DNA of 64,000 bases. Origin: Methanomassiliicoccales archaeon UBA147 (GTDB lineage: Archaea > Thermoplasmatota > Thermoplasmata > SG8-5). Shown in pieces: positions 5,886 through 21,179 of this stretch; positions within the stretch are counted from its first letter, which is position 1, and each line of letters begins with the position of its first letter. The DNA lies in contig DAJR01000023.1 in the NCBI GenBank assembly GCA_002496385.1, positions 3,651 to 67,650 on the forward strand, read 5' to 3'. Under the pieces are notes generated by a model, which was not told the DNA's origin, ran no database searches, and saw only the letters and a list, made by a program, of their open reading frames with translations. The position numbers and the translations under genes were made by a program.

Positions 5886-5889
5886 TCAG

Positions 5890-6960: not shown

Positions 6961-6965
6961 AGCAG

Positions 6966-8846
6966 ATGAACCCGCTGAAGCACTGGATGTCAATGTATCC
7001 CGACAAGTTCGCGGAAGAAGACAGGATATTCAGCGGCATCCACAGGGGGGACCGCATATTCATAGGAACGGCCTGCGCCGAGCCCCAATACCTTGTCCAG
7101 GCCTTCATCAATTACATCGAGAGGAACCCGAACCAGATATTCGACGCCGAGATATTCAATGTCTGGACATTGGGAGTCGCCCCCTACAACGATGCCAAGT
7201 TCAAGAACAATTTCCGCCAGAATTCATTCTTTATATCGGCCAGTACCAGGGAAGCAGTGAACGAGGGGCTTGCAGATTACACCCCCACATTCCTCTCCGA
7301 AATCCCCGAGCTATTCAGAAAGCGGGCGATACCTCTCGACGTGGCCCTTGTCCAAACCACCCCGCCGGACCGGCACGGGTTCATGAGCTTCGGCGTAAGC
7401 GTGGACATAGTCAAGGCCGCGGTGGACGCCGCCACAGTTGTGATTGTCCAGGTAAACCCGGCCATGCCCCGTACCCACGGGGACGGGTACATCCACATTA
7501 GCCAGGTGGATTACGTCATCATCCGCGAAGAGCCCATCCTCACATACCTTGACGACGCGGACGACGACATAGCCCACAAGATAGGCAGCTATGTTTCCAA
7601 GCTAGTGGAGGACGGGGACACCATCCAGGTAGGCTACGGCGCCCTGCCCAATGAAATTTTGCGCAACCTCAAGGACAAGAAGCACCTGGGGATTCACACC
7701 GAGCTGATAAGCGACGGCCTGGTCGAGCTGATACAGGCCGGCGCGGTCGACAATTCCATGAAGACCATCAACAAGGGCAAGTCGGTCGCCACTTTCTGCA
7801 TGGGGACCAAGTCGGTGTATGACTTTGTCCACGATAATCCCTCAGTCCAGTTCAGGACCATAGATTACACCAATGACCCGCTGATTATTGCCCAGCACGA
7901 CAACATGGTCGCCATCAACAGCGCCCTGGAGATAGACCTCACTGGCCAGGCGACGGCCGAGTCCCTCGGAAAGAAATTCTACAGCAGCGTGGGGGGCCAG
8001 GCAGATTTCATGAGGGGCGCGATGCTGGCAAGAAACGGAAAGACCATTCTGACCATACAATCGACCGCCGACAACGGCAACATTTCAAGGGTCGTGCCAT
8101 ACCTCAAGGAAGGGGCCAGCGTCACACTCCACCGCGGCGATGTCCACTACGTCATCACGGAATACGGGATTGCATACCTGCACGGCAAGAACATCCGCGA
8201 GAGGGCGATGGAACTCATCTCGGTCGCGCACCCGAAGTTCCGCCCGGAGCTGATAAAACAGGCGAAGGCGCTCAACCTAATCTACAGCGACCAGGCATTC
8301 ATTCCCGGGAAGAAGGGCGAGTACCCCGAAGCGCTGGAAACCTACAGGACCACCGACCAAGGCCTGGAGATTCTTCTCAGGCCGGTGAAGATGAGCGACG
8401 AACCGCTCGTGAAGGAGTTCTTCTACGACCTGTCTGACAAGAGCATGTACAGGCGTTTTCTCTCTGTGAGGAAGGATATGCCCCACGAACGCCTTCAGGA
8501 ATTCGTGATAATCAACTACATGAAAGAGATGGTGATCGTCGCAACCGTCGGGAGCGAGGGCAAGGAGAAGATAGTCGGCATAAGTCAGTACGGCATCAAC
8601 GAGGGCACGCACACCGCGGAGGCCGCGTTCGTTGTTAGGGACGACTACCACGGAAAGGGCGTGGGCCATGAACTGCTCAAGTACCTCACCTATCTGGCAA
8701 AGAAGAACGGCCTGCTCGGGTTCACCGCCGAGGTGCTCGTCGAGAACACACCGATGCTCAGGCTGTTCGAGAAGATGGGCTTCAACATCGAGAAGCGCTC
8801 CAGCTCCGGCGTTTACGAGATGAAGATGCTGTTCAGGGAGGCCTGA
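6966..8846 (+). CDS. Acetyl-CoA hydrolase/transferase-family CoA-transferase domain fused to a C-terminal GNAT acetyltransferase domain
   Basis: The N-terminal ~430 aa resemble the 4-hydroxybutyrate/succinyl-CoA:acetate CoA-transferase family. The C-terminal ~160 aa carry GNAT features (RRFLSVRKD.., VVRDDYHGKGVGHELLKYL, FEKMGF). Confidence 0.7.
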   Translation: MNPLKHWMSMYPDKFAEEDRIFSGIHRGDRIFIGTACAEPQYLVQAFINYIERNPNQIFDAEIFNVWTLGVAPYNDAKFKNNFRQNSFFISASTREAVNEGLADYTPTFLSEIPELFRKRAIPLDVALVQTTPPDRHGFMSFGVSVDIVKAAVDAATVVIVQVNPAMPRTHGDGYIHISQVDYVIIREEPILTYLDDADDDIAHKIGSYVSKLVEDGDTIQVGYGALPNEILRNLKDKKHLGIHTELISDGLVELIQAGAVDNSMKTINKGKSVATFCMGTKSVYDFVHDNPSVQFRTIDYTNDPLIIAQHDNMVAINSALEIDLTGQATAESLGKKFYSSVGGQADFMRGAMLARNGKTILTIQSTADNGNISRVVPYLKEGASVTLHRGDVHYVITEYGIAYLHGKNIRERAMELISVAHPKFRPELIKQAKALNLIYSDQAFIPGKKGEYPEALETYRTTDQGLEILLRPVKMSDEPLVKEFFYDLSDKSMYRRFLSVRKDMPHERLQEFVIINYMKEMVIVATVGSEGKEKIVGISQYGINEGTHTAEAAFVVRDDYHGKGVGHELLKYLTYLAKKNGLLGFTAEVLVENTPMLRLFEKMGFNIEKRSSSGVYEMKMLFREA

Positions 8847-8848
8847 AC

Positions 8849-10978
8849 ATGGACCTCCCCGACATCAAATACCTCTTCGAGCCGAGGTCTGTCGCGGTCA
8901 TAGGCGCTTCCGGGGAGAAGAACAAGGTCGGCTGCAAGCTCATGGAGAACATGATGTCCATGGACTTCAAGGGGAAGATATATCCAGTCAACATCAAGGG
9001 CGGCGACATCATGGGGCTGAAGGTCTGCACGGACCTGGGGGAGATAGAAGGCCCGGTTGACATGGCCGTGATAGCCATACCCGCGAAATTCGTCTTCGGC
9101 GCAGTCGAGTCCTGCGCAAAGAAAGGCGTGAAGTTCCTTGTCATAATCACCTCGGGCTTCTCCGAGGTCGGGAACAATGCCGAAGAGAGGAGGATCGTCG
9201 AATACGCGCACCAACATGGGATGCGGGTCCTGGGTCCCAACATATTCGGGATATACTCGGGGAAGGTCGGCCTCAACGCCACTTTCGGTCCCAGGGACGT
9301 GAACCGGGGCAATGTTGCAATAGTGACCCAGAGCGGCGCCCTGGGCATCGCGATGATAGGCAAGACCGCCACGGAGAACATTGGCCTGAGCACGATAGTC
9401 TCGGTCGGCAACAAAGCGGACATTGAAGAGGCCGAACTGCTGGAATACCTGATTGACGACGACCAGACCAAGATCATCATGCTCTACATCGAGGGAGTTC
9501 ACAGGGGCGAGAGTATGGTCGCCCTCCTAAAGAAGGCCACCAAGAGGAAGCCAGTGATAGTCATCAAGTCCGGAAGGTCAAAGAGGGGTGCGCTGGCGGC
9601 GGCCTCGCACACCGGCGCGCTTGCCGGGGCGGACGAGATATTCGACTCCATAATGAAGCAGTGCGGCGTGCTACGGGCCGAGAGCCTCCAGGAGGCCTTC
9701 AACTGGTGCAAGTTCCTTGCCAACACACCTGTTCCGAAGGGCAGGAGCACCGTGATAATCACGAACGGCGGCGGCGTGGGGGTGATGGCGACCGATGCCT
9801 GCGAGAAGCACAAGGTCGACCTGTTCGACGACGCCGTCGCCACCAAGGAGATATTCGGCTCAGTCACCCCGGACTTCGGATCCACGAAGAACCCCATCGA
9901 TATCACTGGCCAGGCATTGGCCCATCATTACGACGGCGGCCTGGGCGCCGCCCTCAGGGACGAACGGATAAATGCGGTTATCGCACTGTACTGCCAGACC
10001 GCTGATTTCGACAGGACAACTTACGTCAATATGATAATGAAGAATGTCAAGGAGTACAGGGAAGGCGGCAAGCCCATAGTATTCTCGCTGGTCGGCGGCG
10101 AGGAGGTCGAGAACTGCATCAGGGAGCTCAGGCGCTCTGGCGCTCCTGTATTCGGTGATGTTTATGAAGCGGTCCAATGCTTCGGAGCACTGTTCAGGCA
10201 CCATGACCATCTCTCTCGCTCGGCCGAAGAGCCAGAGGAGCCTGACATGGATGTCGGATGCATGCATGACATAATATCCGGCGTCAGGGCGGATGGGCGC
10301 ACCTTCCTGCTCTCCCATGAGGCCCAGGCACTGATGAACGCAGCGGGAATCCCAGTCCCTCAGAGCAAGATAGCCGCCAACATCAGGGAGGCAATAGAGT
10401 TCGCAGAGAAAATCGGGTACCCTGTGGTCATGAAGATCGCTTCGAAGGACATCATACACAAGAGCGATGCGGGCGGCGTGGCGCTCGACCTTCTGAACAA
10501 GGAGGAGGTCATGGACGCCTACCAGGCCATCATCCGCAATGCGAGGAAATACAAGCCGGACGCAGTGATAAAGGGCGTCGAGATAGTCAGGATGATAGAG
10601 AAGGGCACAGAGACCATCATAGGTGCGAGGAGGGACAGGGCATTCGGCCCTGTCATCATGTTCGGGCTGGGCGGGATATACGTGGAGGTGCTGAAGGACG
10701 TGGCATTCCGCGCCCTACCGCTGGACCGCAGGGAGATAATAAGCATGCTCAAGGACATCCGCTCCTACTCCCTGCTGCTCGGGGTCCGCGGGGAAACCCA
10801 GCGCGACATCGGGAGCATCGTCGACACAATAATTAAATTGGGGAAGGTCATACGAAAATGCGGGGATATTTCGGACATCGAGATAAACCCGCTCGCGGTC
10901 TACGAGCAGGGGCAGGGCGCCATGGCGGTAGACGTCAGGATATTACTGGGTGACAGCAACAGGGGTGAAAAGAAATGA
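8849..10978 (+). CDS. acd: Acetyl-CoA synthetase (ADP-forming), fused alpha/beta (NDP-forming acyl-CoA synthetase)
   Basis: CoA-binding N-terminus (PRSVAVIGAS), ligase-CoA and succinyl-CoA-synthetase-like flavodoxin domains, C-terminal ATP-grasp (GYPVVMKIAS..HKSDAGGV). Start is 3 nt after the previous stop. Confidence 0.85.
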   Translation: MDLPDIKYLFEPRSVAVIGASGEKNKVGCKLMENMMSMDFKGKIYPVNIKGGDIMGLKVCTDLGEIEGPVDMAVIAIPAKFVFGAVESCAKKGVKFLVIITSGFSEVGNNAEERRIVEYAHQHGMRVLGPNIFGIYSGKVGLNATFGPRDVNRGNVAIVTQSGALGIAMIGKTATENIGLSTIVSVGNKADIEEAELLEYLIDDDQTKIIMLYIEGVHRGESMVALLKKATKRKPVIVIKSGRSKRGALAAASHTGALAGADEIFDSIMKQCGVLRAESLQEAFNWCKFLANTPVPKGRSTVIITNGGGVGVMATDACEKHKVDLFDDAVATKEIFGSVTPDFGSTKNPIDITGQALAHHYDGGLGAALRDERINAVIALYCQTADFDRTTYVNMIMKNVKEYREGGKPIVFSLVGGEEVENCIRELRRSGAPVFGDVYEAVQCFGALFRHHDHLSRSAEEPEEPDMDVGCMHDIISGVRADGRTFLLSHEAQALMNAAGIPVPQSKIAANIREAIEFAEKIGYPVVMKIASKDIIHKSDAGGVALDLLNKEEVMDAYQAIIRNARKYKPDAVIKGVEIVRMIEKGTETIIGARRDRAFGPVIMFGLGGIYVEVLKDVAFRALPLDRREIISMLKDIRSYSLLLGVRGETQRDIGSIVDTIIKLGKVIRKCGDISDIEINPLAVYEQGQGAMAVDVRILLGDSNRGEKK

Positions 10979-12009
10979 AACCAAGAATCGTGTTCGCATC
11001 AATGAGCGAGAGCGCGGGAAAGACCAGCATGATAGTCGGGCTCGGCAGGGCGCTGGGAAAGAGGATCGGATACATGAAGCCGATGGGCGACCGCCTCCTC
11101 TACCAGAAGAAGCGGCTCTGGGACTATGATTCCGCGCTGGTCACCAACATTTTCGGACTGAAGGGCAAGCCCGAGGATATCACAATGGGCTTCGAGCATT
11201 CCAAGCTCGGCTATATGTACGACGATGATGCCAGGAAGAAAAAGCTACTCGAAATCGCATCGGCGATCGAAAAGGACTGCGACATCCTGTTCGTGGAATC
11301 CGGGCGGAACCTCCGTTACGGTAGTTCGGTCAACCTGGATGCCATCTCAGTCGCCAAGGACCTGGATGCGAAGCTGGTGATAGTCCTGGCCGGCACCGAT
11401 GATACGATGATGGACGACATCGCCTTCATAAAGCGAACAGTCAACCATCAGGGCGTCAAGCTGATGGGCGTGATCATAAACAAAGTTGCGGATGCCGATG
11501 ACTTCACGGCGACGCATGTGGATGCCATCAAGGCAACCGGGATAGACGTGCTCGGCATGATCCCCCACCAGGAAACACTCACCCAGTTCTCGATGAACTA
11601 CCTGGCTGACATGCTGTTCGCAAAGGTGCTTGCCGGCGACGACGAGCTTCTCAAACCCGTGAAGAACATATTTGTGGGTGCAATGTCTGCGTCAGCCGCC
11701 CAGAGGGAGCCGGCCTTCAAGAAGGAAGGGAAACTGATAATCACCAGCGGCGACAGGAGCGATATCATTCTTGCGGCGTTGGAATCCGACACGGCCGGTA
11801 TAGTCCTCACAAACAACATCCTCCCGTCATCCAACATAATTTCCAAGGCGGCATCGGTCAAGATCCCTCTCTTGCTGGTCCACACGGACACCTTCCTCGT
11901 GGCCAAGCAGGTGGACGACGCCGTCCCGCTTTTGACAAAGGACAGCACGGCCAAGATAGAATTGCTCGAGCAAACCGCGCAGAAGCTGGCCCTTGACAAG
12001 TTCAGATAA
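10975..12009 (+). CDS. Phosphotransacetylase N-terminal-like protein (BioD/P-loop-like + DRTGG domain), no Pta catalytic domain
   Basis: ATGA overlap with acd. P-loop-like ESAGKTSM, then a DRTGG-type region (LIITSGDRSDI.., GIVLTNN). Confidence 0.65.
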   Translation: MKPRIVFASMSESAGKTSMIVGLGRALGKRIGYMKPMGDRLLYQKKRLWDYDSALVTNIFGLKGKPEDITMGFEHSKLGYMYDDDARKKKLLEIASAIEKDCDILFVESGRNLRYGSSVNLDAISVAKDLDAKLVIVLAGTDDTMMDDIAFIKRTVNHQGVKLMGVIINKVADADDFTATHVDAIKATGIDVLGMIPHQETLTQFSMNYLADMLFAKVLAGDDELLKPVKNIFVGAMSASAAQREPAFKKEGKLIITSGDRSDIILAALESDTAGIVLTNNILPSSNIISKAASVKIPLLLVHTDTFLVAKQVDDAVPLLTKDSTAKIELLEQTAQKLALDKFR

Positions 12010-12014
12010 ACGGT

Positions 12015-12554
12015 CTATCTGCCCGGCGGAATGAAATCGTGCAAATCCGCAATCTGCGGATTGCGCTTGCCCTCCGTGACAAGGCACATGTTGACATCTA
12101 TCATCACAGGCTTGTCAAGGAGATGGTCGTCATATATCATCCTTAGGGTGTCGTAATAGCGCCTGGCAGTCGCGTGGTCTGGCGCGGAGAACCTGAGCAC
12201 CCAATCGAACTCCCCGTTGACATAGAAGAAATTGGTCAGCCGCACATTCTGCTTCTTCGGCCCTTCCCCGACCAGCCGCATCAGCAGCGTGTTAACCAGT
12301 CCCTCGTTCATGGGCTTGGTCTTCATCAGCACTATGTAGCATACATGGCCCAGCCGCTTCTCGTCCAGGACCGCAGTGTAGCCCCAGATGACCCCGTCGT
12401 CCTCCAGTTGCTTCTTCTTGCGCCATACTTTCTGGCGGTATGTCCCGAGGTCCCTGGCTATCTCCATATCGCTCCTTGTCGGGTCCTCCAGCAGGGCGGC
12501 CACTATCCTGTTGTCCAGACTCTCTTTTTTACCGACCGTCTCATTTTCAGTCAT
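12015..12554 (-). CDS. Lrp/AsnC-family transcriptional regulator
   Basis: N-terminal HTH (LDNRIVAALLEDPTRSDMEIARDLG) plus RAM/ACT-like C-terminal domain. Convergent with the citrate/acetate operon. Confidence 0.8.
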   Translation of the reverse strand: MTENETVGKKESLDNRIVAALLEDPTRSDMEIARDLGTYRQKVWRKKKQLEDDGVIWGYTAVLDEKRLGHVCYIVLMKTKPMNEGLVNTLLMRLVGEGPKKQNVRLTNFFYVNGEFDWVLRFSAPDHATARRYYDTLRMIYDDHLLDKPVMIDVNMCLVTEGKRNPQIADLHDFIPPGR

Positions 12555-12633
12555 TCCTTCACCTTTTGTTACATTTCTGTATTACAACATTCTTTATCTG
12601 TCACTCTCATATATAATTAATGGAGGTGAATGA

Positions 12634-12768
12634 AGTGCAGAAGAAGACGGAAATGGACTACGAGAAGATCACAATCTATCCCTTCGATTACGACGCCGAG
12701 AAGCGCGAGCAGCTTCACACCCAGCTCAAGAAACTCGGCATCAAGTTCAGCTACGAGAACTGGAACTG
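12634..12768 (+). CDS. Candidate small ORF (GTG or ATG start) with possible frameshift at a CCCC run
   Basis: GGAGGTG 3-9 nt upstream. Frame 0 reads (V)QKKTEMDYEKITIYPFDYDAEKREQLHT. After CCCC at ~12718-12721 the +1 frame reads QLKKLGIKFSYENWN*, far more protein-like than the in-frame continuation. Confidence 0.25.
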
Positions 12769-12887
12769 AATGAATTTCATGCGGGCAGCGTGGGCTAATT
12801 AGAATATTTATTGCAGAACAGTGCCTCTTTCTCCTATAAAATGTATTTATAAGCATCAGTTCATTGCACATTAATTATTGCTCAAAT

Positions 12888-12906
12888 AGGCAATATATTT
12901 AAATAC
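12888..12906 (+). promoter_or_regulatory. TATA-like box (aggcaatatatttaaatac) upstream of the DUF134 gene
   Basis: AT-rich box ~25-35 nt before the ATG at 12919/12928 within a 360-bp AT-rich intergenic region. Confidence 0.3.
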
Positions 12907-12927
12907 TTCTTCTCATATGTGCATATT

Positions 12928-13257
12928 ATGCCCGGAAGACGCGGAAGACACAGATGCCCCAGGTGGGTCACGGATGTGCCGGAAGTGCAATTTTTCAAAC
13001 CCGCTGGCGTGCCCCTGAGAACGCTGCAGGTGGTCGAATTGACCATCGAAGAACTTGAGACAATCCGCCTTGTGGACCTTGACGGTCTCACACAGGAGCA
13101 AGCGGCGGTTTCAATGGGGGTTTCCAGACGGACACTCTGGAACGACCTGATGGCCGCCCGAAAGAAGGTGGCCTTCGCCCTGGTCAATGGCCAGGCGATA
13201 CAGATCCGGGGAGGCGCCTACGCAGTCGCCGGGCAAACAGAAGAAAGGAGGAAATGA
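12928..13257 (+). CDS. DUF134-family predicted DNA-binding protein (sigma-70 region-4-like HTH)
   Basis: [29 protein letters not shown]...[29 protein letters not shown] matches the DUF134 N-terminal pattern MPRP.KCRRV...FKP.G.P with HTH. The ORF could also start at 12919. Confidence 0.7.
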
Positions 13258-13631
13258 ACATGCCATACGGAGACAGAACAGGACCCTGGGGACAGGGACC
13301 GATGACCGGCCGAAGGGCCGGATACTGCGCAGGAAACGATCGTCCAGGATATGCGAGCCCAATCGTGGGCCGCGGTTTTGGAATGGGTTACGGCCGTGGA
13401 ATGGGTCGCGGGAGAGGCTTTGGCCGGGGGTTCGGCAGGGGCTACGGCCGCGGTTTCGGCTACGGTCCGGCTTCGGAGCCGCCCGACTATTACCCGGCCA
13501 GGACCATACCGGTCCACAGGGAACCTTCGCCCGAGGAGGAGAAGATATTCCTTGAGAACCTGGTAAAGGACCTGGAAGCGGAACTGGAGGACGTGAAGGC
13601 GCGAATGAATGAACTGGCGAAGAAGGAGTAG
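13254..13631 (+). CDS. Gly/Arg-rich (GRG repeat) small protein with coiled-coil tail, DUF5320-like
   Basis: [25 protein letters not shown] then [34 protein letters not shown]-terminal [28 protein letters not shown]. Family resemblance is from memory. Confidence 0.6.
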
Positions 13632-13658
13632 TCAGTTCTCTTTATTTTTTGTGATTGA

Positions 13659-14465
13659 ATGAACGGAAACATCGCCGGCGGAAACACGATCGAGAAAAAC
13701 CTCGAAAGCATAGGTGACATACTGGTCGTGATGAGCGGCAAGGGCGGTGTTGGAAAGACAACGGTGGCTGTCAACCTCGCATGTGCATTGGGCGCACGCG
13801 GGAAATCCGTCGGGATACTTGATGCTGATTTCCACGGGCCCAATGTCCCGATGATGCTGGGAATGGAAGGCGGCACTCTCATGGCCGATGGCGAGTCCAT
13901 CGTTCCGATGATGGCGTTCAACGGTATGCCAGTCATGTCCACGGCATTTCTGATAAGCAATCCGGACATCCCCGTGATATGGCGCGGCCCGATGAAGATG
14001 CAGGTAATCAATCAGTTCCTGGGCCAGGTGCGATGGGGCAAATTGGATTACCTTGTCATAGACCTTCCGCCCGGGACAGGTGACGAATCGTTGAGCATAG
14101 CCCAGCAGATTCCCAGGGCGAAAGCCATCATTGTCACGACGCCGCAGGATGTGGCGCTGCTGGATTCCAGGAAAGCCGTGACCTTTGCCAGGCAACTCAA
14201 GATGCCCGTTCTCGGGATGATAGAGAACATGAGCGGTATGGAATGCCCGCACTGCGGCAAGGACATTGACCTGTTCAAGACGGGCGGCGGCGAGAGAGCC
14301 GCTGCCGAGATGGGCGTTCCATTTCTCGGCAGGCTTCCGTTGGACCCCCGGACTGTTGTGTCCGGGGATTCCGGGAAGCCTATCATGGCCGGGGACCTCG
14401 GGAGCAGCGTCGCGAAGGCGTTCAGTGAAATAGTGGAAAGAATCGAGGACAAAGGAGGAAATTGA
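13659..14465 (+). CDS. mrp: Mrp/NBP35/ApbC-family Fe-S cluster carrier P-loop ATPase
   Basis: GKGGVGKTT Walker A, DLPPGTGD, CxxC (CPHCG) cluster-ligating motif. Confidence 0.85.
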   Translation: MNGNIAGGNTIEKNLESIGDILVVMSGKGGVGKTTVAVNLACALGARGKSVGILDADFHGPNVPMMLGMEGGTLMADGESIVPMMAFNGMPVMSTAFLISNPDIPVIWRGPMKMQVINQFLGQVRWGKLDYLVIDLPPGTGDESLSIAQQIPRAKAIIVTTPQDVALLDSRKAVTFARQLKMPVLGMIENMSGMECPHCGKDIDLFKTGGGERAAAEMGVPFLGRLPLDPRTVVSGDSGKPIMAGDLGSSVAKAFSEIVERIEDKGGN

Positions 14466-14466
14466 C

Positions 14467-14655
14467 ATGAACGGAAATGGACAGGGCAGGGGAAACCGGG
14501 CCGGAGGCCAAGGCCGCGGGATGGGCACCGGCCAGGGACTGGGCGGAACATGCGTCTGCCCGAAATGCGGATATAGCGAACAGCACCAGAGGGGCGTGCC
14601 GTGCTTCGAGGTTAGATGCCCGAAGTGCAATATGCAGTTGATAAGAGGCAAATGA
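14467..14655 (+). CDS. Small Gly/Arg-rich protein with C4 zinc ribbon
   Basis: GQGRGNRAGGQGRGMGTGQG N-terminus; CVCPKCG ... CPKCN. Starts 2 nt after the mrp stop. Confidence 0.5.
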   Translation: MNGNGQGRGNRAGGQGRGMGTGQGLGGTCVCPKCGYSEQHQRGVPCFEVRCPKCNMQLIRGK

Positions 14656-14675
14656 GAAATTTGGAGGTATGAAAA

Positions 14676-16025
14676 ATGAAACAGGCAGACATCGTAATTG
14701 TGGGCGGAAGCGCGGCCGGGGTCCCGGCGGCAATTACCGCGAGAAGGCATTATCCAGACAAGAGCATCTTGCTGGTGAGAAAGGAACAACAGGTATTGAT
14801 ACCGTGCGGAATACCGTACATATTCGGAACAGTCGGAAAGCCCGAGAACAATCTCATCCCAGACAAGTCCCTGATTGACAACAAAGTCGAAATATTCGTG
14901 GACGAGGTCACTGGCATAGACAAAGCCGGGAAGACGCTGTCGACCGCAGGCGGCGAGACAATAGGGTATGACAAACTCGTCCTCGCAACCGGCTCCGAGC
15001 CTCTGGTTCCGCCGATTCCGGGCATGAACAAGGAAAATGTCTTCCCGATAAAGAAGGACATCGAATACCTTAGAAATTTCCAGAGCACGCTTGAGGGCGT
15101 GAAGGACTTGGTCGTCCTGGGCTGCGGTTTCATAGGCGTGGAATTCGCAGACGAATGCAAGAAGAACAGGGACATCAATGTCACGATAATCGAGATGCTG
15201 AACCAATGCCTTCAGATTGCATTCGGGGAGAGCGCCTGCAAATGCTGCAAGGAGATTGAGGACGCCCTGAAGAACCGTGGTATAAACATTGTCACCGAGG
15301 CGAAGCTGGAAGAGGTGCTCGGGGACGACAAGGTCACAGGTGTCAAACTGTCCGACGGCAGGGTGATCAAGGCAGACGCTCTCATTGTCGGCATCGGGGT
15401 GAAACCGAACATCGCGCTCGCCAAGGCCGCAGGCCTGGAGACCGACCCCGGGTTCGGCATAAAAGTCGACACGAACCAGAGAACGACCGACCCCAACATA
15501 TTCGCCGTGGGAGACTGCGCCAGTAAGTTCTCCTTCTTCTCCGGGAAACCGTCCAAGTTATGGCTCGCCTCCATAGCCACGCATGAGGCCAGGATAGCCG
15601 GTGCCAATCTGTTCAAGACCAGGCGCATCAACCAGGGCGTGATAGGCGTGTTCTCGACCGCGATAGACGGGTTAACCGTCGGCATGGCCGGAATGAGTTC
15701 GAAAGGCGCGGAGGAATTCGGATTCGAGGTTGTCACCGGAGAAGCGGAAGCTCCCAACAGGCATCCCGGGGGAATGCCGGGCATGGCAAAAATGTGGGTA
15801 CGCCTTAACTTCAACAGATCGAACGGCGAGATAATCGGCGGAGCGGTCTGCGGCGGCTCAAGCGCCGGCGAGGTCATAAACATAATCAGCGCCTGCATTC
15901 AGAAGAAGATGACGGCCGACGACATAGCAACATTCCAGATTGGGACGCATCCTGCGGTCACAGCATCGCCCATCGCCTACCAGTTGGTGAACGCGGCCGA
16001 GATGGCTTTGAAAAACATGAGGTAA
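14676..16025 (+). CDS. FAD-dependent pyridine nucleotide-disulfide oxidoreductase (NADH oxidase / CoA-disulfide reductase family)
   Basis: GGSAAG FAD motif; redox-active Cys motif PCGIPY; second Rossmann GCGFIGVE; C-terminal dimerisation domain. Confidence 0.8.
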   Translation: MKQADIVIVGGSAAGVPAAITARRHYPDKSILLVRKEQQVLIPCGIPYIFGTVGKPENNLIPDKSLIDNKVEIFVDEVTGIDKAGKTLSTAGGETIGYDKLVLATGSEPLVPPIPGMNKENVFPIKKDIEYLRNFQSTLEGVKDLVVLGCGFIGVEFADECKKNRDINVTIIEMLNQCLQIAFGESACKCCKEIEDALKNRGINIVTEAKLEEVLGDDKVTGVKLSDGRVIKADALIVGIGVKPNIALAKAAGLETDPGFGIKVDTNQRTTDPNIFAVGDCASKFSFFSGKPSKLWLASIATHEARIAGANLFKTRRINQGVIGVFSTAIDGLTVGMAGMSSKGAEEFGFEVVTGEAEAPNRHPGGMPGMAKMWVRLNFNRSNGEIIGGAVCGGSSAGEVINIISACIQKKMTADDIATFQIGTHPAVTASPIAYQLVNAAEMALKNMR

Positions 16026-16396
16026 TGCGCATGAAAATCGCAATAACATCGACAGGAAAGGAATCAGATGCCCAGATGGACCCAAGATTCGGCAGATGCC
16101 AGTACTTCATCATACTGGACCCGGACACGATGAAGTTCACGGCACATGACAATGCCGGCACGATGCAGAGGGGCGGTGCCGGGCCCATGGCAGCCAAGGC
16201 GATATCCGACCTTGGCGCTGAAATACTCATAACTGGCGATGTGGGGCCCAATGCCTTTGACGCACTCAAAGCCGCCGGGATAAAGGCCTACATTGGCGCA
16301 AGCGGCACGGTCAGCCAGGCAGTTCAGCAGTGGAAGGACGGAAAGCTCAGCGAGGCCGGGACTGCGAGCGTCGCATCCCACGCAGGAATGAGGTGA
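16025..16396 (+). CDS. NifX/NifB-like dinitrogenase FeMo-cofactor-binding-domain protein (Nitro_FeMo-Co family)
   Basis: MKIAITS..DPRFGRCQYFIILD...LITGDVGPNAFDALKAAGIKAY matches the NifX/NafY small-domain pattern. Confidence 0.7.
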   Translation: MRMKIAITSTGKESDAQMDPRFGRCQYFIILDPDTMKFTAHDNAGTMQRGGAGPMAAKAISDLGAEILITGDVGPNAFDALKAAGIKAYIGASGTVSQAVQQWKDGKLSEAGTASVASHAGMR

Positions 16397-16397
16397 T

Positions 16398-16802
16398 TTG
16401 ATGAAAGTTTGCATACCGACGATGGGAGACAGGGGAATGGATGAATCCGTGGGCGAGCATTTCGGAAGGGTTCCGACCTATACGCTTGTCAACACCGAAA
16501 CAGGAGAAGTCAAGGTCATCCAGAACACCACAACACACATGGGCGGCACAGGATATGCGCCGGACCTGATTTCGCAGCACGGCGCGGAAGTGATGCTGTG
16601 CGGAGGCCTGGGCAGAAAGGCCATCCAGATGTTCGAAGAAAAGGGCATCATGGTCTATGTCGGCGCAAGCGGCACAGTGGCTGATGCGATCAACCACTGG
16701 AAGGCCGGGCAGTTGCAGGCAGCCACCAATGAGACGGCGTGCCAGCAGCACGCATTTCGGGGCGAGGGCCACGGAGACGGCCACCACCATCACCACGAGT
16801 GA
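16398..16802 (+). CDS. Second NifX/NifB-like domain protein with His-rich C-terminal tail
   Basis: VCIPT..HFGRVPTYTLV...VMLCGGLGRKAIQMFEEKGIMVY; tail GEGHGDGHHHHHE. Confidence 0.7.
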   Translation: MMKVCIPTMGDRGMDESVGEHFGRVPTYTLVNTETGEVKVIQNTTTHMGGTGYAPDLISQHGAEVMLCGGLGRKAIQMFEEKGIMVYVGASGTVADAINHWKAGQLQAATNETACQQHAFRGEGHGDGHHHHHE

Positions 16803-16808
16803 GGGGGC

Positions 16809-17753
16809 CTGAAGACGTCCCTTGCCTATGGCCCGGTACCTTCAAGGAGGTTCGGGCGCTCGATAGGGGTGAGCCCCATTCCTCCCAAGGCTTGCACCTA
16901 CTCATGCATATATTGCCAGCTCGGACACACTACCGATCTGAGAGTGGCGAGGGACAGGTTCTTCGATCCCGCCCGGATTGAAAATGACATCGAAACCGCG
17001 GTTCTGGCCTGTAAAGAGAAAGCGGATTTCATAACGATGGTCGGAGACGGAGAGCCAATATTGTCCACGGACATCGGCCGGCTGATATCATACTGCAAGC
17101 GCCGATGGGACATCCCGGTAGGCGTGATAACCAACGGCTCACTGCTCTGGGATAACGAGGTAAGAAGCCAGCTTCATGAGGCAGACATTGTCTCAGTGAC
17201 TGTTTCCGCCGGCGAGGAGTCCGAGTTCAGGAAGATACACAGGCCGCATGGTAAACTGAAATTTCAAAAGGTAATGGACGGGATGCGTGAGTTCAGGAAA
17301 GATTTCAATGGAAAATTATGGGCGGAGGTCATGCTGGTCGCAGGCCTGAATGACTCAGACGGGGTTCTGCATTCAATCAAGGAACAATTGGATTCAATAT
17401 CCCCTGACAAAATCTTCATCGCAACGCCCACGAGACCGCCGGCCGAGAGCTGGGTAAGGCCGCCCGGAACCGACAGCATCCTGAACGCCGCCGCCATCCT
17501 CAACGGGTCGATAGAGATGACATTGCCGGAAACTGGAAACTTCGCAATAACCGGCGACGTAAAACATATTTCTGATACGATATTGCAGTTATGTTCCAGG
17601 CATCCGATGATGGAGCACCAGCTTAGGGAGATAGAGGGGCAATTGGACACGATATTCGTGGACGGGATGATTGCGGATGGGCTTGTGATATGGAAACCGC
17701 ATATGGGCATCCGATACCTTGTGCCAAATAATATGAAAGGGAGGCAAACATAA
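16809..17753 (+). CDS. Radical SAM protein (COG0731-like); start placed at a non-canonical CTG, the only canonical start being GTG 16869
   Basis: CTYSCIYC (CxxxCxxC). In frame upstream of GTG 16869 lies LKTSLAYGPVPSRRFGRSIG, matching the family's conserved N-terminus (..FGPVPSRRLGRSLG..). It is bounded by TGA at 16800 and has no ATG/GTG/TTG. A GAGGGGG SD-like sequence sits just before CTG 16809. Confidence 0.7.
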   Translation: MKTSLAYGPVPSRRFGRSIGVSPIPPKACTYSCIYCQLGHTTDLRVARDRFFDPARIENDIETAVLACKEKADFITMVGDGEPILSTDIGRLISYCKRRWDIPVGVITNGSLLWDNEVRSQLHEADIVSVTVSAGEESEFRKIHRPHGKLKFQKVMDGMREFRKDFNGKLWAEVMLVAGLNDSDGVLHSIKEQLDSISPDKIFIATPTRPPAESWVRPPGTDSILNAAAILNGSIEMTLPETGNFAITGDVKHISDTILQLCSRHPMMEHQLREIEGQLDTIFVDGMIADGLVIWKPHMGIRYLVPNNMKGRQT

Positions 17754-18595
17754 TGGGCATGAAAATTGCAATAGCAAGCGGCAAGGGCGGGACAGGCAAG
17801 ACAACCGTGGCGGTGAACCTGGCGCTGAGCCTGGGGAATGTCCAGCTCATCGACTGCGATGTGGAGAATCCGAACGGCCACCTGTTCCTGGGAAAGGAAC
17901 TGGAAGAGGTAGAACCCGTGAATCTGACTGTACCGCTCATAGACAAGGCAAAATGCACGAACTGCGGGAAGTGCGCCGAGTTCTGCCGCTACAACGCTCT
18001 GGTCACGATCAAACAGGCCACACTTTTCTTCCCGGAGATGTGCCACGGCTGCGGCGGCTGCACCCTGGTCTGCCCGGAGAACGCCATCAGCGAAGTTCCC
18101 AGGCCCATCGGCAAGATTTACCATGCAGATGTCGCGGGGATGGATTTCTGGTCAGGGCTGCTGAACATAGGCGAGCCCATGGCCACGCCTGTCATAAAGC
18201 GGCTGAAATACCATGTCGCTGCCTCGAGAACCGTGATACTGGACTCCCCCCCGGGCACTGCCTGCCCGGTGATTGAAACCATGTCCGACGCAGATTTTGT
18301 GATACTTGTAACCGAGCCCACACCATTCGGCCTTCACGACCTGAAACTGGCCGTCGAAGTGGTCCGGCTTCTGGGAATTCCCTTCGGCGTGATAGTTAAC
18401 CGCATGGGCTCGGGAGACGACAGGGTCCAGAGGCACTGCGGGGAAGAGGGCATTGAAGTCCTGATGGAGATACCCCAGGACCAGGGCATAGCCAGGCTTT
18501 ACTCGAAAGGCACGCCCTTCGTGCAGGAAATGCCCGAATGGAAGGCCAAGTTCAGGGACCTCCATGCTGGGATAATGAAGGTGGTGGGACAATGA
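17753..18595 (+). CDS. MinD/ParA-superfamily P-loop ATPase with embedded 2x[4Fe-4S] ferredoxin domain
   Basis: GKGGTGKTT; CTNCGKCAEFC and CHGCGGCTLVCP; TAATG overlap with the preceding gene. Confidence 0.75.
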   Translation: MGMKIAIASGKGGTGKTTVAVNLALSLGNVQLIDCDVENPNGHLFLGKELEEVEPVNLTVPLIDKAKCTNCGKCAEFCRYNALVTIKQATLFFPEMCHGCGGCTLVCPENAISEVPRPIGKIYHADVAGMDFWSGLLNIGEPMATPVIKRLKYHVAASRTVILDSPPGTACPVIETMSDADFVILVTEPTPFGLHDLKLAVEVVRLLGIPFGVIVNRMGSGDDRVQRHCGEEGIEVLMEIPQDQGIARLYSKGTPFVQEMPEWKAKFRDLHAGIMKVVGQ

Positions 18596-19455
18596 AACAG
18601 TTAACTGTCATCAGCGGCAAGGGTGGGACAGGCAAGACAACCATCACCGCAGCATTCGCGTCCCTGGCGCGGAATGCGGTGCTGGCGGACTGCGATGTTG
18701 ATGCCGCAGACCTGCATCTCATCCTGAATCCGAAAATCAGGGAGACAATGGAGTTCAAAGGCCTAAAAATCGCAAGGAAGGATTCGGACAAATGCATATC
18801 CTGCGGCAAATGCCTGGAGCACTGCCGTTTCAATGCCATTGACGGGAATTTCAACATCAAGGACACCGGGTGCGAGGGCTGCGGCGTGTGCGAGTATGTC
18901 TGCCCCGCAAAGGCCATAACGCTTGTGGACAGGATATCCGGCCATGCCTATCTCTCGGAGACAAGGTTCGGGCCCATGGCCCATGCTGCACTCAAGACTG
19001 CCGAAGAAGCTTCGGGCATGCTGGTTTCCCTTGTGCGGGAGAACGCCAAGCGCCTTGCCAGGGAGCAAAACCGGGATACGGTGATAATCGACGGGCCGCC
19101 GGGCATTGGTTGCCCGGTCATATCGGCCATTGCCGGCGTGGATCTTGTATTGGTGGTATCGGAGCCCACAGTATCGGGCGTTCACGACGCAGAGCGCGTG
19201 TTGGGCGTGGCAAAGCATTTCAGGATACCGGCCATGATGCTGGTGAACAAGGCCGACCTCAACCCCCAGATGGCTGAGAAGCTTGAGAGGTATTGCCTGG
19301 ACAGCGGCGTGAAGCTTGCCGGACGCCTGCCTTACGACAATGTCACGACCGAGGCAATGATCGCCGGGAAGACTGTCATCGAGTACTCGGACGGCGCCTT
19401 CTCGGCAGAGCTTCGCGAGGTGTGGGCGAAGGTGCTGGTGTCCCTGCAGGCCTAA
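18592..19455 (+). CDS. Second MinD/ParA-like ATPase with 2x[4Fe-4S] ferredoxin insert (paralog)
   Basis: GKGGTGKTT; CISCGKCLEHC and CEGCGVCEYVCP; ATGA overlap with the previous paralog. Confidence 0.75.
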   Translation: MKQLTVISGKGGTGKTTITAAFASLARNAVLADCDVDAADLHLILNPKIRETMEFKGLKIARKDSDKCISCGKCLEHCRFNAIDGNFNIKDTGCEGCGVCEYVCPAKAITLVDRISGHAYLSETRFGPMAHAALKTAEEASGMLVSLVRENAKRLAREQNRDTVIIDGPPGIGCPVISAIAGVDLVLVVSEPTVSGVHDAERVLGVAKHFRIPAMMLVNKADLNPQMAEKLERYCLDSGVKLAGRLPYDNVTTEAMIAGKTVIEYSDGAFSAELREVWAKVLVSLQA

Positions 19456-19889
19456 TCATATGCCAACCGGATATTCTCAGCTGCCAGCGTGGGTTTAATC
19501 AACTCCTGCCAGACAGCGGACTCCCATGTTCCCAGCTTGCTGTGCGTCAGAAAATATTTCTGGGGTATCGGGTGTGTCCCCACGACCACCTTGATGCCGT
19601 ATTTCTCGGTGATGAAGTCCCTGAATCTTGCTATGTTGGGGCAGGGCGGGTATCCGACCACCAGTCCGGTGGCCAGGTGTATCGCTTCCGTGCCGTTCTT
19701 CTTCATCTCCTCGGGCGCGTATTCAATGTTCCCTCCGGGGCATCCGCCGCAGGTGGTGTATCCGACAATCTCCAATGTCTCGTCCTTCGGGTAAATGCTG
19801 AAAGCTCCCTCGCGGTTTCGCGCAGCCCTGAAGCATTTGCCCCCGGCGCAGTTATGGTACCTGTTGCAGATGAATATTCCGATTTTCAT
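19452..19889 (-). CDS. CGGC-domain protein
   Basis: TTCGGCPG plus further conserved Cys (ICNRYHNCAGGKC, PPCP). Convergent with, and overlapping the end of, the MinD-like gene. Confidence 0.7.
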   Translation of the reverse strand: MKIGIFICNRYHNCAGGKCFRAARNREGAFSIYPKDETLEIVGYTTCGGCPGGNIEYAPEEMKKNGTEAIHLATGLVVGYPPCPNIARFRDFITEKYGIKVVVGTHPIPQKYFLTHSKLGTWESAVWQELIKPTLAAENIRLAYD

Positions 19890-19904: not shown

Positions 19905-21179
19905 TCAAACTCCGAACACCATGCCGTCCTCGTCCGGCCTGAAGTCCTTGGCCGGCGTCTCCTTCTTGTGCATGGCTATCTCGTTCCTCACAGTCTCTGC
20001 CAGCCTCTTTATTCCCTCGTCAATCTCCGCGTCCGTGGCATAGGTGAAATTCAACCTCATGGTATTCCTGCCGCTTCTGTCCGCAAAGAACGAGGCTCCG
20101 TGCACATAAGCGACATTGTTCTCCAGCGCTCTCGTGAACATCTCCTTCGTGTCGATGTTCTCCGGCAATGTGACCCAGATAAACATTCCCCCCTCGGGCT
20201 TGGTCCATTTCGCCTCTGCGGGGAAATGCCTGTCCATGGCAGCGAGCATGCGGTCGCGCTTGTGCTTGTAGAGCGATTTGATCTTCTCGAGGTGCTGGTC
20301 CAGATATCCGCGCGTCAGATACTCGGCCGCGATGTGCTGGCCGAATGTGTTCGTGCATAAATCCGCGGCCTGCTTCACTATGATGAGTTTGTTGAGCAGA
20401 TCCTTGTCGGCAATGCACCATGCCACTCTGAATCCGGGGGCCAGAACCTTCGAAAATGTTCCCAGGTAGATCACTCTGCCGTCCTCGTCCATGGTTTTCA
20501 TGGGTTTTATTGCCTGGCCGCTGTACCTGAGCTCCGAGTATGGTGCATCCTCTATCACGACCATGTCGTATTCCCGTGCAATCTCCAGGACGCGCTTACG
20601 CCTCTCCATTGTCATTGTGACGCCGGAGGGATTCTGAAATGCCGGGACCAGGTAAAGGAGCTCGGGGTTGCGCCCGTGCATCTGAAGCTGCTTGATCTTG
20701 TCCTCCAGCGCCTCCGGGTCCATGCCTTCTTCGTCCACCGGGACGCTTTCCAGCAATGCCCCGTAGGACCTGAACGCATTGGTGCCGCCCATGTAAGTGG
20801 GCGCGCCCACGATGACTGTGTCGTCCGGGTCCAGGAATGTCTTGCCGATGAGGTCGAGGGCCTGCTGCGAGCCTGCCGTGATCAGGACATTGTGGTAGTT
20901 GATGTTCATGCCCTTGCCCACCATCCTGTCGGCAATGGCCTTTCTCAGCTCCGTAACACCCTCTGTGGTGCCGTACTGGAGTATGTTGGGCCCCTTCTCG
21001 TCCAAGAGATAATTGCATATCTCCCTTACCTTGTCAACAGGGAAGGCTTCGGGGCTGGGCAGTCCGCCCGCAAACGAGATAACTTCCTTCCTCTCCGTGA
21101 GCTTCAGAAGCTCTCGGATTTCGGACGCTTTCATCTCCTTGGCATTCTTCGAATAAAGATGCGAGAATTTGCTTGGCAT
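19905..21179 (-). CDS. PLP-dependent aminotransferase (class I/II, 2-aminoadipate/aromatic type)
   Basis: Fold-type I aminotransferase pattern including the Lys-containing segment YLGTFSKVLAPGFRVAW. Confidence 0.8.
   Translation of the reverse strand: MPSKFSHLYSKNAKEMKASEIRELLKLTERKEVISFAGGLPSPEAFPVDKVREICNYLLDEKGPNILQYGTTEGVTELRKAIADRMVGKGMNINYHNVLITAGSQQALDLIGKTFLDPDDTVIVGAPTYMGGTNAFRSYGALLESVPVDEEGMDPEALEDKIKQLQMHGRNPELLYLVPAFQNPSGVTMTMERRKRVLEIAREYDMVVIEDAPYSELRYSGQAIKPMKTMDEDGRVIYLGTFSKVLAPGFRVAWCIADKDLLNKLIIVKQAADLCTNTFGQHIAAEYLTRGYLDQHLEKIKSLYKHKRDRMLAAMDRHFPAEAKWTKPEGGMFIWVTLPENIDTKEMFTRALENNVAYVHGASFFADRSGRNTMRLNFTYATDAEIDEGIKRLAETVRNEIAMHKKETPAKDFRPDEDGMVFGV

Follow-up and report, generated by a model that had tools for sequence, protein, structure and literature searches.

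A candidate archaeal form of the orange protein (ORP) system in Methanomassiliicoccales archaeon UBA147

We have analysed a cluster of eleven genes in a stretch of 64,000 nucleotides (nt), hereafter the window, from the Thermoplasmata genome of Methanomassiliicoccales archaeon UBA147 (GenBank assembly GCA_002496385.1, contig DAJR01000023.1, positions 3,651–67,650 of the forward strand). A first-pass annotation, made from the DNA alone, had described these genes as a conserved but functionally undescribed ensemble. Comparison with related loci leads us to regard the locus, with a probability of roughly 0.55, as an archaeal (Thermoplasmata) form of the orange protein (ORP) system. The core matches the ORP complex that has been published for Desulfovibrio vulgaris and D. 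gigas (PMC6345978, PMC8359166), and the ensemble is therefore real and conserved but not undescribed. Earlier literature covers the ORP core, its occurrence in archaea and its confinement to anaerobes. Particular to this locus are a split Mrp protein, a DUF134 gene in the place of the bacterial activator OrpR, a lineage-specific disulfide reductase, an apparently non-canonical start of a radical S-adenosylmethionine (SAM) gene and a convergent CGGC gene. The features, in window coordinates, are as follows.

12770–12927, + strand: candidate promoter region, AT-rich, with a TATA-like ATATATTTAAATA about 22–35 nt ahead of the ATG at 12928
12928–13257, + strand: DUF134 (UPF0251) protein with a sigma-70 region-4-like helix-turn-helix (HTH) and an Arg-rich N-terminus
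13254–13631, + strand: DUF5320 protein; MP(Y/R)GDxTGPxGxGPMTGR N-terminal motif, then Arg/Gly/aromatic repeats, then a C-terminal coiled coil
13659–14465, + strand: Mrp/NBP35/ApbC-type P-loop Fe–S carrier with a deviant Walker A motif (GKGGVGKT) and a CPHC (CxxC) motif
14467–14655, + strand: Zn62, a 62-residue Cys-rich protein; GQGRG-type Gly/Arg N-terminal segment, then CxCPxCG...x13...CPxC
14676–16025, + strand: FAD/NAD(P)H disulfide oxidoreductase of the single-Cys class (Pfam Pyr_redox_2, 206 bits, 1.3e-60; Pyr_redox_dim)
16025–16396, + strand: NifX-like protein 1 (NifX_a), ORP/Orp8 type (Pfam Nitro_FeMo-Co, 79 bits, 2.6e-22)
16398–16802, + strand: NifX-like protein 2 (NifX_b), TM1816/PH0822 or Orp7-like (Pfam Nitro_FeMo-Co, 73 bits, 3.1e-20)
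16809–17753, + strand: radical SAM protein, COG0731-like ('wyosine synthase-like'), with a CTYSCIYC motif (Pfam Radical_SAM, 57 bits); start probable
17753–18595, + strand: MinD/ParA-class ATPase with a 2x[4Fe–4S] insert, paralogue A, Orp3/Orp4 type (Pfam CbiA, ParA and Fer4)
18592–19455, + strand: MinD/ParA-class ATPase with a 2x[4Fe–4S] insert, paralogue B, Orp3/Orp4 type (Pfam CbiA and Fer4)
19452–19889, − strand: CGGC-domain Cys-rich protein (Pfam CGGC, 100 bits, 1.1e-28), convergent, with a 4-nt overlap of the gene ends

Reading of the open reading frames (ORFs) bore out all eleven genes with the coordinates, strands and junctions claimed in the first pass, the start of the second MinD–ferredoxin gene being corrected to 18592. 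Adjacent genes share ATGA overlaps (13254/13257 and 18592/18595) or single-nucleotide overlaps (16025 and 17753), or are separated by 1 nt (14465/14467 and 16396/16398); overall, the junctions are such overlaps or gaps of 1–27 nt, and most internal starts are preceded by a GGAGG-type ribosome-binding motif. This operon-like packing, together with the ribosome-binding motifs, supports co-expression of the cluster genes. Between DUF5320 and Mrp the 27-nt spacer (13632–13658, TCAGTTCTCTTTATTTTTTGTGATTGA) is rich in T and lacks a ribosome-binding motif; possibly it acts as an archaeal oligo-T terminator or attenuator and parts DUF134 and DUF5320 from the remaining genes, so that a single transcript for the cluster is not proven.

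The family assignments were upheld by Pfam profile searches, with scores above the curated cut-offs; for Zn62 no Pfam or NCBIfam model was matched, but the protein is conserved in 30 of 80 related loci. The broader proposal that every member is an Fe–S or metallocluster module is not supported for DUF134, DUF5320, Zn62, the radical SAM protein and the CGGC protein, which have no demonstrated chemistry. The nearest named homologues come from metagenome-assembled genomes (MAGs) of Thermoplasmata, and the same locus was found in six independent metagenome assemblies. Rfam and tRNA scans of the cluster gave no match, and the absence of nitrogenase genes holds for the whole 64 kb window.

The core is identified as an ORP system from the best relative of NifX_a, the match of Mrp to the MrpORP model and the gene content of two loci, L010 and L011, which were fetched for homologues 68–75% identical to D. 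gigas ORP. The best match of NifX_a in the Protein Data Bank (PDB) is the orange protein of D. gigas, also named Megalodesulfovibrio gigas (2WFB, 2.9e-20), with 45% identity over 110 residues, and its type is present in 65 of the 80 loci. NifX_b matches 1T3V/1O13 (7e-18) and 2YX6 (1e-16); its type, present in 55 of the 80, is the domain fused to Mrp in MrpORP-like proteins. Besides ORP and a pair of MinD–ferredoxin genes, L010 and L011 each have another NifX-like gene and one for a zinc ribbon; L011, the source of the 75%-identical ORP homologue, also has DUF134 and a Gly/Arg-repeat protein. Identities between the window and L011 are 51% for DUF134, 40 and 47% for the ATPases and 29% for the second NifX, with the ORP-type NifX inside this range of 29–51%. 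The window thus holds an Orp8-type NifX, paired MinD-like ATPases with two [4Fe–4S] motifs each and a second NifX of the Orp7 type, as in an ORP system. The C-terminus of NifX_b (16770–16799) ends in a His-rich tail, GHGDGHHHHHE (GEGHGDGHHHHHE), resembling a tail in the related locus L093; it may be a metal-binding extension.

The Mrp gene matches the Pfam NUBPL/Mrp ParA family (PF10609) with 326.7 bits (1.1e-97) and encodes the Walker A motif GKGGhGK[ST] and the CxxC motif by which Mrp/NBP35/ApbC proteins have been defined (PMC6345978). Its best NCBIfam model is MrpORP, at 355.9 bits over model positions 2–250 of 365, which is below the cut-off of 450 because the C-terminal NifX-like domain is missing. 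In MrpORP the P-loop domain is fused to that domain; here the NifX-like domain is encoded separately, and the window Mrp, judged from its sequence, is a single-domain, split form of MrpORP (Orp9). Among the related loci the Mrp–NifX_b fusion occurs in nine (9 of 40 Mrp copies) and the split form accounts for the other 31 copies.

The ORP complex purified from D. vulgaris Hildenborough consists of Orp3, Orp4, Orp5, Orp8 and Orp9, of which Orp3 and Orp4 have two [4Fe–4S] ferredoxin motifs each, Orp5 is a homologue of a small [2Fe–2S] protein, Orp8 is the ORP homologue and Orp9 is MrpORP; in vitro, MrpORP passes Fe–S clusters to the co-purifying Orp3–Orp4–Orp8 (PMC6345978). Expression of the operons orp5-orp4-orp3 and orp7-orp8-orp9 is confined to low redox potential and turned on by the Fe–S-containing sigma-54 activator OrpR, and an archaeal origin of the system has been suggested before (PMC8359166).

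The two ATPases of the window fall into consistent orthologous pairs in the ATPase alignment. Paralogue A is 50–63% identical to archaeal and bacterial orthologues, a range that spans Thermoplasmata, Asgard archaea, methanogens, Chloroflexota, Planctomycetota and Desulfobacterota (48–63% over the whole set of loci described below), and 40–41% identical to the ATPases of the ORP-operon loci L010 and L011; paralogue B, 47% identical to its L011 counterpart, stands beside paralogue A in 78 of the 80 loci and is presumed to be the heterodimer partner. Invariant in both are the Walker A motif SGKGGTGKT, eight cysteines of a ferredoxin insert of about 60 residues, and Cys171 (DxPPGxxC) and Cys229. 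A PDB search found no solved structure with the MinD–Fer4 architecture. The best sequence matches there are MinD proteins, and the nearest folds to the AlphaFold model of paralogue A (predicted local distance difference test, pLDDT, 83) are archaeal MinD, McdA, MinD–MinE, Soj, FlhG and ApbC. The model therefore describes the core as a predicted MinD/ParA-class dimerizing ATPase with a redox insert. Neither protein qualifies as a MinD equivalog (71.5 and 64.7 bits with minD_arch, for which the cut-off is 201.75), and no minC or minE lies nearby. We considered the ATPases as NifH-like reductases and rejected the assignment, the nearest folds being MinD, McdA and Soj, with BchL only 35th; ATP-gated transfer of electrons or clusters in the manner of NifH is retained as an analogy and not as family membership.

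The distribution of the ORP cluster is said to have been first described by Fievet et al. in 2011. Our own set of 80 loci, in 80 genomes from more than 15 phyla, was obtained by searching a single genome of each species with an alignment built from the two ATPase paralogues. The 18 archaeal loci belong to Thermoplasmata, Asgard archaea, Bathyarchaeia, Methanosarcinales, Methanocellaceae, anaerobic methanotrophic archaea (ANME), Altiarchaeota and a Halobacteria MAG, and the 62 bacterial loci to Desulfobacterota, Chloroflexota, Planctomycetota, Omnitrophota, Acidobacteriota, Armatimonadota, Spirochaetota, Clostridia and others. Neighbours were counted with phmmer, using the window proteins against all ORFs of each locus and keeping matches less than 6 kb from the ATPase anchor; the counts are lower bounds because many contigs are short. 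Of the 80 loci, 78 have a second ATPase paralogue and 70 have a NifX-like gene, with both NifX types present in 50. Mrp follows with 38 loci, DUF5320 with 33 (divergent copies in a further ten), Zn62 with 30, DUF134 with 22, a Zn_ribbon_8-type gene with 17, the radical SAM family with 14 and CGGC, on the cluster strand, with seven; the FAD reductase is found in none. Co-occurrence on this scale in 80 independent genomes excludes chance juxtaposition, and the conservation of the neighbourhood across archaea and bacteria, as proposed in the first pass, is borne out.

Locus L093, whose ATPase is 79% identical to that of the window, has the gene order AsnC-like (−), a 48-residue ORF, DUF134, NifX, NifX, radical SAM, ATPase, ATPase, CGGC (−), aminotransferase (−). 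The block of DUF5320, Mrp, Zn62 and reductase is missing, which makes 13254–16025 a variable module. In other loci three of the four genes often accompany ORP, and the reductase is unique to the lineage. Being absent from all 80 loci and from L093, the reductase loses the place that it had been given in the conserved ensemble and is, on this comparison, a lineage-specific passenger. Its best PDB matches are Archaeoglobus fulgidus NoxA-3 (6PFZ, 5e-54), CoA-disulfide reductase (CoADR) and CoA-persulfide reductase. The FAD, NAD(P)H and dimerization domains and the xCG(L/I)PY cysteine of the single-Cys pyridine nucleotide-disulfide oxidoreductases are all present; in the alignment Cys44, within LIPCGIPY, falls on the RCGLPY motif of NoxA-3. 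The predicted class is NADH oxidase, CoA-disulfide reductase or persulfide reductase; scores against the NCBIfam equivalogs, including CoA-disulfide reductase, are all below cut-off, so the substrate cannot be assigned from them.

Same-strand ORFs without an assignment in the 80 loci were clustered and representatives annotated with Pfam, and a profile search was made later. The largest class of other recurrent neighbours is a NifU_N/IscU-like scaffold (26 loci by clustering, 29 by profile search). Further classes are a third NifX type with an RG-rich Cys tail (17–19 loci), a DUF89/ARMT1-like protein (13–14), a metallo-beta-lactamase-fold protein (12–13), an OrpR-like PAS/sigma-54 activator (11–12, all bacterial), a 2x[4Fe–4S] ferredoxin (ten by clustering, four by profile search), Fur (7–8), DUF364/DUF4213, annotated as 'putative heavy-metal chelation' (seven), and DUF1847 (five). 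Of the individual archaeal loci, L094 has NifU_N together with a class-V aminotransferase, and L008 has FeS_assembly_P. With IscU-like, Fur and ferredoxin genes recurring in this way, the context favours iron–sulfur assembly and iron homeostasis over division or segregation. In some archaeal and bacterial loci genes for DUF364/DUF4213, DUF1847 or NifU_N lie between the members of the MinD–ferredoxin pair or right after it (L094:8828–9514, L009:11595–12646, L089:8515–9261).

DUF134 matches its Pfam family with 95 bits (3.5e-27) and Sigma70_r4_2 at 1.1e-6, and is presumed to be a DNA-binding regulator or adaptor. Its start is most likely the ATG at 12928 (MPGRRGR...), which fits the N-terminus of the family, and not the GTG at 12919. 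Its presence within 6 kb of the ATPase pair divides into 9 of the 18 archaeal and 13 of the 62 bacterial loci. A literature search on DUF134, DUF5320 and the corresponding COG numbers found nothing relevant.

The DUF5320 protein (Pfam DUF5320, 94 bits, 1.7e-26) contains 25 Gly, 13 Arg and 13 aromatic residues in its first 90. Zn62 represents what its alignment indicates is a real, conserved and widespread family with four invariant cysteines in the module CxCPxCG-x13-CPxCG, often encoded directly upstream of the first MinD–Fer4 gene. Alignments of the Zn62 and DUF5320 families reveal a common N-terminal motif, MPRGDGTGPxGxGP(M/G)TGRG, followed by Gly/Arg repeats; downstream of it lies the Cys module in Zn62 and the coiled coil in DUF5320. 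This suggests a common mobile 'RG-tail' module. Zn62 may also be the positional equivalent of Orp5, the small [2Fe–2S] protein: in many bacterial loci it occupies the Orp5 position, and the window copy is found five genes ahead of the two ATPase genes. Domain-level matches in the 80 loci reveal fusions of these parts. NifX_a of the ORP type is joined to a DUF5320-like tail (GMGRGMGRG repeats and the DUF5320 coiled coil) in at least nine loci and to Zn62 in L092, and DUF134 is joined to Zn62 in L083.

These architectures recall IssA, an Fe–S storage protein of Pyrococcus furiosus, in which an IPR003731 (NifX-like) domain is followed by an unstructured, cationic Gly/Arg/aromatic tail; the tail has been proposed to wrap anionic thioferrate, IssA can rebuild the [4Fe–4S] cluster of ferredoxin, and MTH1175, a tail-less relative, has been treated as an IssA-type protein (PMC5524996). 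MTH1175 (1EO1) is a PDB match of both NifX-like proteins of the window, and the residue composition of DUF5320 fits the IssA tail as described (PMC5524996). From the fusions, the common motif and the composition, we read DUF5320 and the Gly/Arg part of Zn62, by analogy, as an IssA-type tail that would be supplied in trans. The window and IssA have in common the NifX-like domain (IPR003731/PF02579) and the Arg/Gly/aromatic repeats, which the related loci fuse to the ORP-type domain. They differ in that the tail is here a separate DUF5320 protein with a coiled coil, the NifX-like proteins being tail-less apart from the His-rich end of NifX_b, and in that no partnership of IssA with MinD–ferredoxin ATPases has been reported. 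A third NifX-like subtype, found only in bacteria (L058:8295–8684 and 16–18 other loci), has a Cys-rich, Arg/Gly-rich tail (..CRHCCRNQRGRGGRWRGGRR) and is a further example of a cationic tail on a NifX-like domain.

Of the known systems, the closest comparison is with the Desulfovibrio ORP system (D. vulgaris Hildenborough, D. gigas, D. alaskensis G20). Both have paired MinD-like ATPases with two [4Fe–4S] motifs, an ORP-type NifX, a second NifX and an Mrp/NBP35 protein with CxxC, and both are confined to anaerobes. The window Mrp, however, does not carry the fused C-terminal NifX-like domain that defines MrpORP; the core genes lie on one strand instead of in two divergent operons; and the window adds the FAD disulfide reductase, the radical SAM protein and the convergent CGGC gene. 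Archaea have no sigma-54. There is no sigma-54 activator in the window, where DUF134 leads instead, and none in the 18 archaeal loci, compared with 12 of the 62 bacterial ones.

Other known systems share some parts. The window Mrp resembles the carriers ApbC, Nbp35–Cfd1 and Ind1 in its end-to-end profile match, its deviant Walker A motif and its CxxC for a bridging [4Fe–4S] cluster, but it scores below both the ApbC and the MrpORP equivalog cut-offs and is not a stand-alone gene but part of an ORP-type cluster. With NifB/NifX/NafY and NifH the locus has in common the Nitro_FeMo-Co domain, a radical SAM protein and Fe–S-bearing SIMIBI-class ATPases encoded close together. It differs in that nitrogenase structural genes are absent from the 64 kb, the radical SAM protein does not have the auxiliary-cluster ligands of NifB, and the ATPases are MinD-like, with a ferredoxin insert in contrast to the subunit-bridging cluster of NifH. 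The MinD/ParA positioning ATPases (MinD–MinE, McdA–McdB, Soj–Spo0J) provide the nearest solved folds and share the deviant Walker A motif and membership of a dimer-forming class, but the window proteins have the ferredoxin insert and two more invariant cysteines, and their genomic partners are Fe–S genes, not MinC, MinE or ParB.

Metallocluster assembly or trafficking, a function offered in the first pass, is the reading best supported by the data. At odds a little better than even, we propose that the whole system is an anaerobe-specific, ATP-dependent machine that holds iron–sulfur (metal-sulfide) material and passes it on. The complex, its Fe–S content, transfer by MrpORP and redox control come from Desulfovibrio only; for the archaeon we infer every part. 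The two NifX-like proteins would bind anionic Fe–S species non-covalently, and DUF5320 and Zn62 would add Arg/Gly/aromatic tails in trans, a combination that resembles the domain-plus-tail of IssA; both steps are suggested by fusions and composition. The MinD–ferredoxin ATPases would form an ATP-dependent heterodimer whose 2x[4Fe–4S] inserts carry electrons or clusters, hydrolysis being coupled to the reductive release or insertion of clusters, and an Orp3–Orp4–Orp8 complex has been demonstrated in Desulfovibrio. Mrp would bridge a [4Fe–4S] cluster on its CxxC and exchange it with the ATPase/NifX complex and with apo-proteins, as Desulfovibrio MrpORP does in vitro. DUF134 would be a local DNA-binding regulator or adaptor, the archaeal stand-in for bacterial OrpR or Fur. 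The radical SAM and CGGC proteins would be recurrent accessories. The FAD reductase would be a species-specific addition that, speculatively, provides sulfide from persulfide or CoA-disulfide or removes oxygen.

Several points weigh against this proposal. Even for Desulfovibrio the literature states outright that ORP has no settled physiological role (PMC8359166), and ORP as isolated carries a Mo–Cu–S cluster, not Fe–S (PMC6345978). The ATPase fold is nearest to positioning ATPases and not of the NifH type. No IscU, cysteine desulfurase or identifiable client was found nearby in the window. The absence of DUF5320, Mrp and Zn62 from L093 makes them dispensable for the core. The co-occurrence counts derive from our own phmmer thresholds on raw ORFs, mostly from short MAG contigs, and the likeness to IssA rests on composition and architecture, without alignment to the IssA sequence.

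Division or positioning was the original hypothesis for the Desulfovibrio ORP complex, and a MinD/ParA-type spatial system, in which the ATPases, DUF134 as a ParB-like component and DUF5320 as an McdB-like disordered adaptor position a cargo or affect division, has to be considered here. ParA-type ATPase partners often have an Arg-rich N-terminus, disordered regions and coiled coils. DUF134 has such an N-terminus, and its best and only PDB similarity, a weak one, is to a ParB-family HTH (7BNR, 3e-4); DUF5320 has a disordered region and a coiled coil; and both the nearest folds and the best PDB sequence matches of the ATPases lead to MinD and its relatives. In Desulfovibrio, inactivation of OrpR leads to morphological defects, MrpORP is polar and Orp3 and Orp4 have a MinD-like C-terminal amphipathic helix (PMC6345978, PMC8359166), although the authors themselves call the division link direct or indirect and unproven (PMC8359166). 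We think this explanation unlikely in view of the eight invariant ferredoxin cysteines, the recurrent neighbours, which are IscU, Fur, Mrp and NifX-like proteins and not division or segregation genes, and the tail fusions, which with one exception join NifX domains and not DNA-binding modules. The spatial and Fe–S readings are compatible, in that the system could position an Fe–S store. Handling of molybdenum/tungsten–copper sulfides seems to us less probable again. The NifX-like proteins would bind thiomolybdate-type clusters, for storage of Mo or W or for detoxification of thiometallates or copper in sulfidic habitats. The identity of NifX_a to D. gigas ORP speaks for this, as do the non-covalent [S2MoS2CuS2MoS2] cluster harboured by Orp8 homologues (PMC6345978) and the binding of Mo-containing cofactors by the Nitro_FeMo-Co family in nitrogenase maturation. 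Yet neither the cluster nor the recurrent neighbours of the 80 loci include genes for molybdate or tungstate transport, for molybdopterin or for copper, IssA holds Fe–S only, and the C-terminal NifX-like domain of MrpORP binds [3Fe–4S] (PMC6345978). The same protein builds Fe, Co, Ni or Cd clusters in vitro, according to the title of a work cited there (ref. 32 of PMC6345978), which suggests a generic anion-binding pocket.

A role in sensing, with the Fe–S-loaded ATPase/NifX complex reporting redox or Fe–S status to DUF134 as the controller of transcription, has little probability in our judgement. A protein with a sigma-70 region-4-type HTH does head the cluster; bacterial clusters have instead an OrpR-like activator (12 loci) or Fur (eight loci), with DUF134 and the activator together in only three, and some DUF134 proteins of related loci carry Cys-rich or Zn62 C-terminal extensions. 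The window DUF134 has a single cysteine, however, the gene is missing from most loci, and six or more structural genes, kept at 50–60% identity between the domains of life, are more than a sensor would need. The region upstream of DUF134 showed no conserved operator: alignment of 12770–12935 with the equivalent region of L093 gave no shared block, and repeats there are at chance level only. Marginally less probable still is synthesis of a nitrogenase-like cofactor by a 'split NifB', that is, by the radical SAM protein, a free NifX, NifH-like ATPases and a scaffold. The genes for radical SAM, NifX-like and Fe–S P-loop ATPase proteins adjoin one another in the window, as they do in 14 of the 80 loci. 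Cys171 lies seven residues past the Walker B Asp164, like Asp125–Cys132 of NifH. The AlphaFold model of the radical SAM protein (pLDDT 91) has NifB structures within its top ten Foldseek matches, but PFL-AE, TYW1 and viperin-like enzymes are about equally near and fit the fold as well, and no NifB model is among its NCBIfam matches. Across 35 homologues only the three SAM-cluster cysteines (CxxxCxxC) are conserved, with no ligands for the auxiliary K1/K2 clusters of NifB, and a NifB-like role is therefore unlikely; we rejected it as the main explanation. The window has no nitrogenase. Moreover, the radical SAM gene is missing from 66 of the 80 loci, the ATPase fold is MinD-like and not NifH-like, and no candidate client gene recurs in the neighbourhoods.

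The ORP system is among the most widely conserved anaerobe-specific gene clusters, and the question of its function is still open more than 20 years after the orange protein was found. The present comparison sharpens that question: IscU-like and Fur genes are the commonest added neighbours, DUF5320 and the 62-residue proteins appear as detachable tails of NifX-like proteins, and a specific radical SAM family and CGGC recur with the cluster. This may help to make the function testable, as an Fe–S storage and delivery machine versus a cell-division factor. A more specific version of the storage-and-delivery reading is possible but tentative, and we would bet against it at present. It postulates a distinct, ancient and anaerobe-specific Fe–S route, in which NifX with DUF5320/Zn62 would hold a polymeric or anionic iron-sulfide store made directly from sulfide, and the MinD–ferredoxin heterodimer, with ATP and low-potential electrons, would convert the store to [4Fe–4S] for Mrp or IscU and then clients. 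If true, it would join the ORP complex and the thioferrate store of IssA in one pathway, from Asgard archaea to Desulfobacterota.

The radical SAM gene poses a problem of its own at the 5' end. The supposed gap of 67 bp between 16802 and 16869 is coding, for a conserved radical SAM N-terminus (..AYGPVPSRRFGRSIG). Homologues (JGI 'wyosine synthetase-like') have 305–318 residues and begin MSFAYGPVPSRRFGRS. This peptide is also encoded in the window, at 16821–16868, in frame and just past the stop codon of the preceding gene. The stretch 16803–16871 encodes the N-terminus (..SLAYGPVPSRRFGRSIG) upstream of the first ATG, GTG or TTG. Where relatives start with the ancestral ATG, as L093 does, each of the six independent assemblies of this species has ACG, and the first canonical start, GTG at 16869, would drop the conserved N-terminal motif. 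A CTG at 16809, 3 nt past a GAGGGGG motif, leaves a 6-nt gap to the preceding gene and is the probable start; the gene either uses such a non-canonical start or encodes an N-terminally truncated protein. A radical SAM homologue also adjoins the ATPase genes in L093.

The convergent arrangement of the CGGC gene recurs in L093, and in L070 and L076 CGGC genes flank the ATPase genes directly. A PDB search found no solved homologue of the protein. The gene is probably co-transcribed with the aminotransferase gene at 19905–21179.

Upstream of the cluster, the AT-rich stretch that had been reported ahead of DUF134 is confirmed, with a G+C content of 31.5% in 12770–12918 against 56.6% across the cluster. 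As read from its composition and TATA-like element, 12770–12927 is a candidate archaeal promoter, whose mRNA would be leaderless or have a short leader. A scan for sigma-70 promoters and terminators gave nothing useful, the method not being applicable to archaea. Between the AsnC-like gene and DUF134, at 12620–12769 (+), lies an ORF of 49 residues (MEVNEVQKKTEMDYEKITIYPFDYDAEKREQLHTQLKKLGIKFSYENWN) with no Pfam match. It is 81% identical to the 48-residue ORF at the same position in L093, and the DNA just downstream of it (12770–12935, the sole flank aligned) is not conserved between the two loci; it is probably a real small gene. The divergent AsnC-like regulator at 12015–12554 was considered as a member of the cluster and rejected, being syntenic in L093 but scarcely matched elsewhere. 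Its only match across the 80 loci is a weak one in L014, roughly 7 kb away from the ATPase genes; the L008 gene of the AsnC type does not match it.

Two further regions of the window were noted. The co-directional block at 4341–12009 encodes CitF (citrate lyase alpha-like), a citrate synthase-like protein, an acetyl-CoA hydrolase/transferase–GNAT fusion, an ADP-forming acetyl-CoA synthetase of 709 residues and an AAA_26+DRTGG protein, and is an acyl-CoA/citrate module unrelated to the ORP cluster. From about 32000 to 57000 there is a surface-glycan biosynthesis island with a G+C content of 35–50%, compared with about 56%. It includes a Wzt-type ABC transporter, many GT2/GT4 glycosyltransferases, sugar epimerases and dehydratases, a B12-binding radical SAM protein and another radical SAM protein, and was probably horizontally acquired or is fast-evolving.

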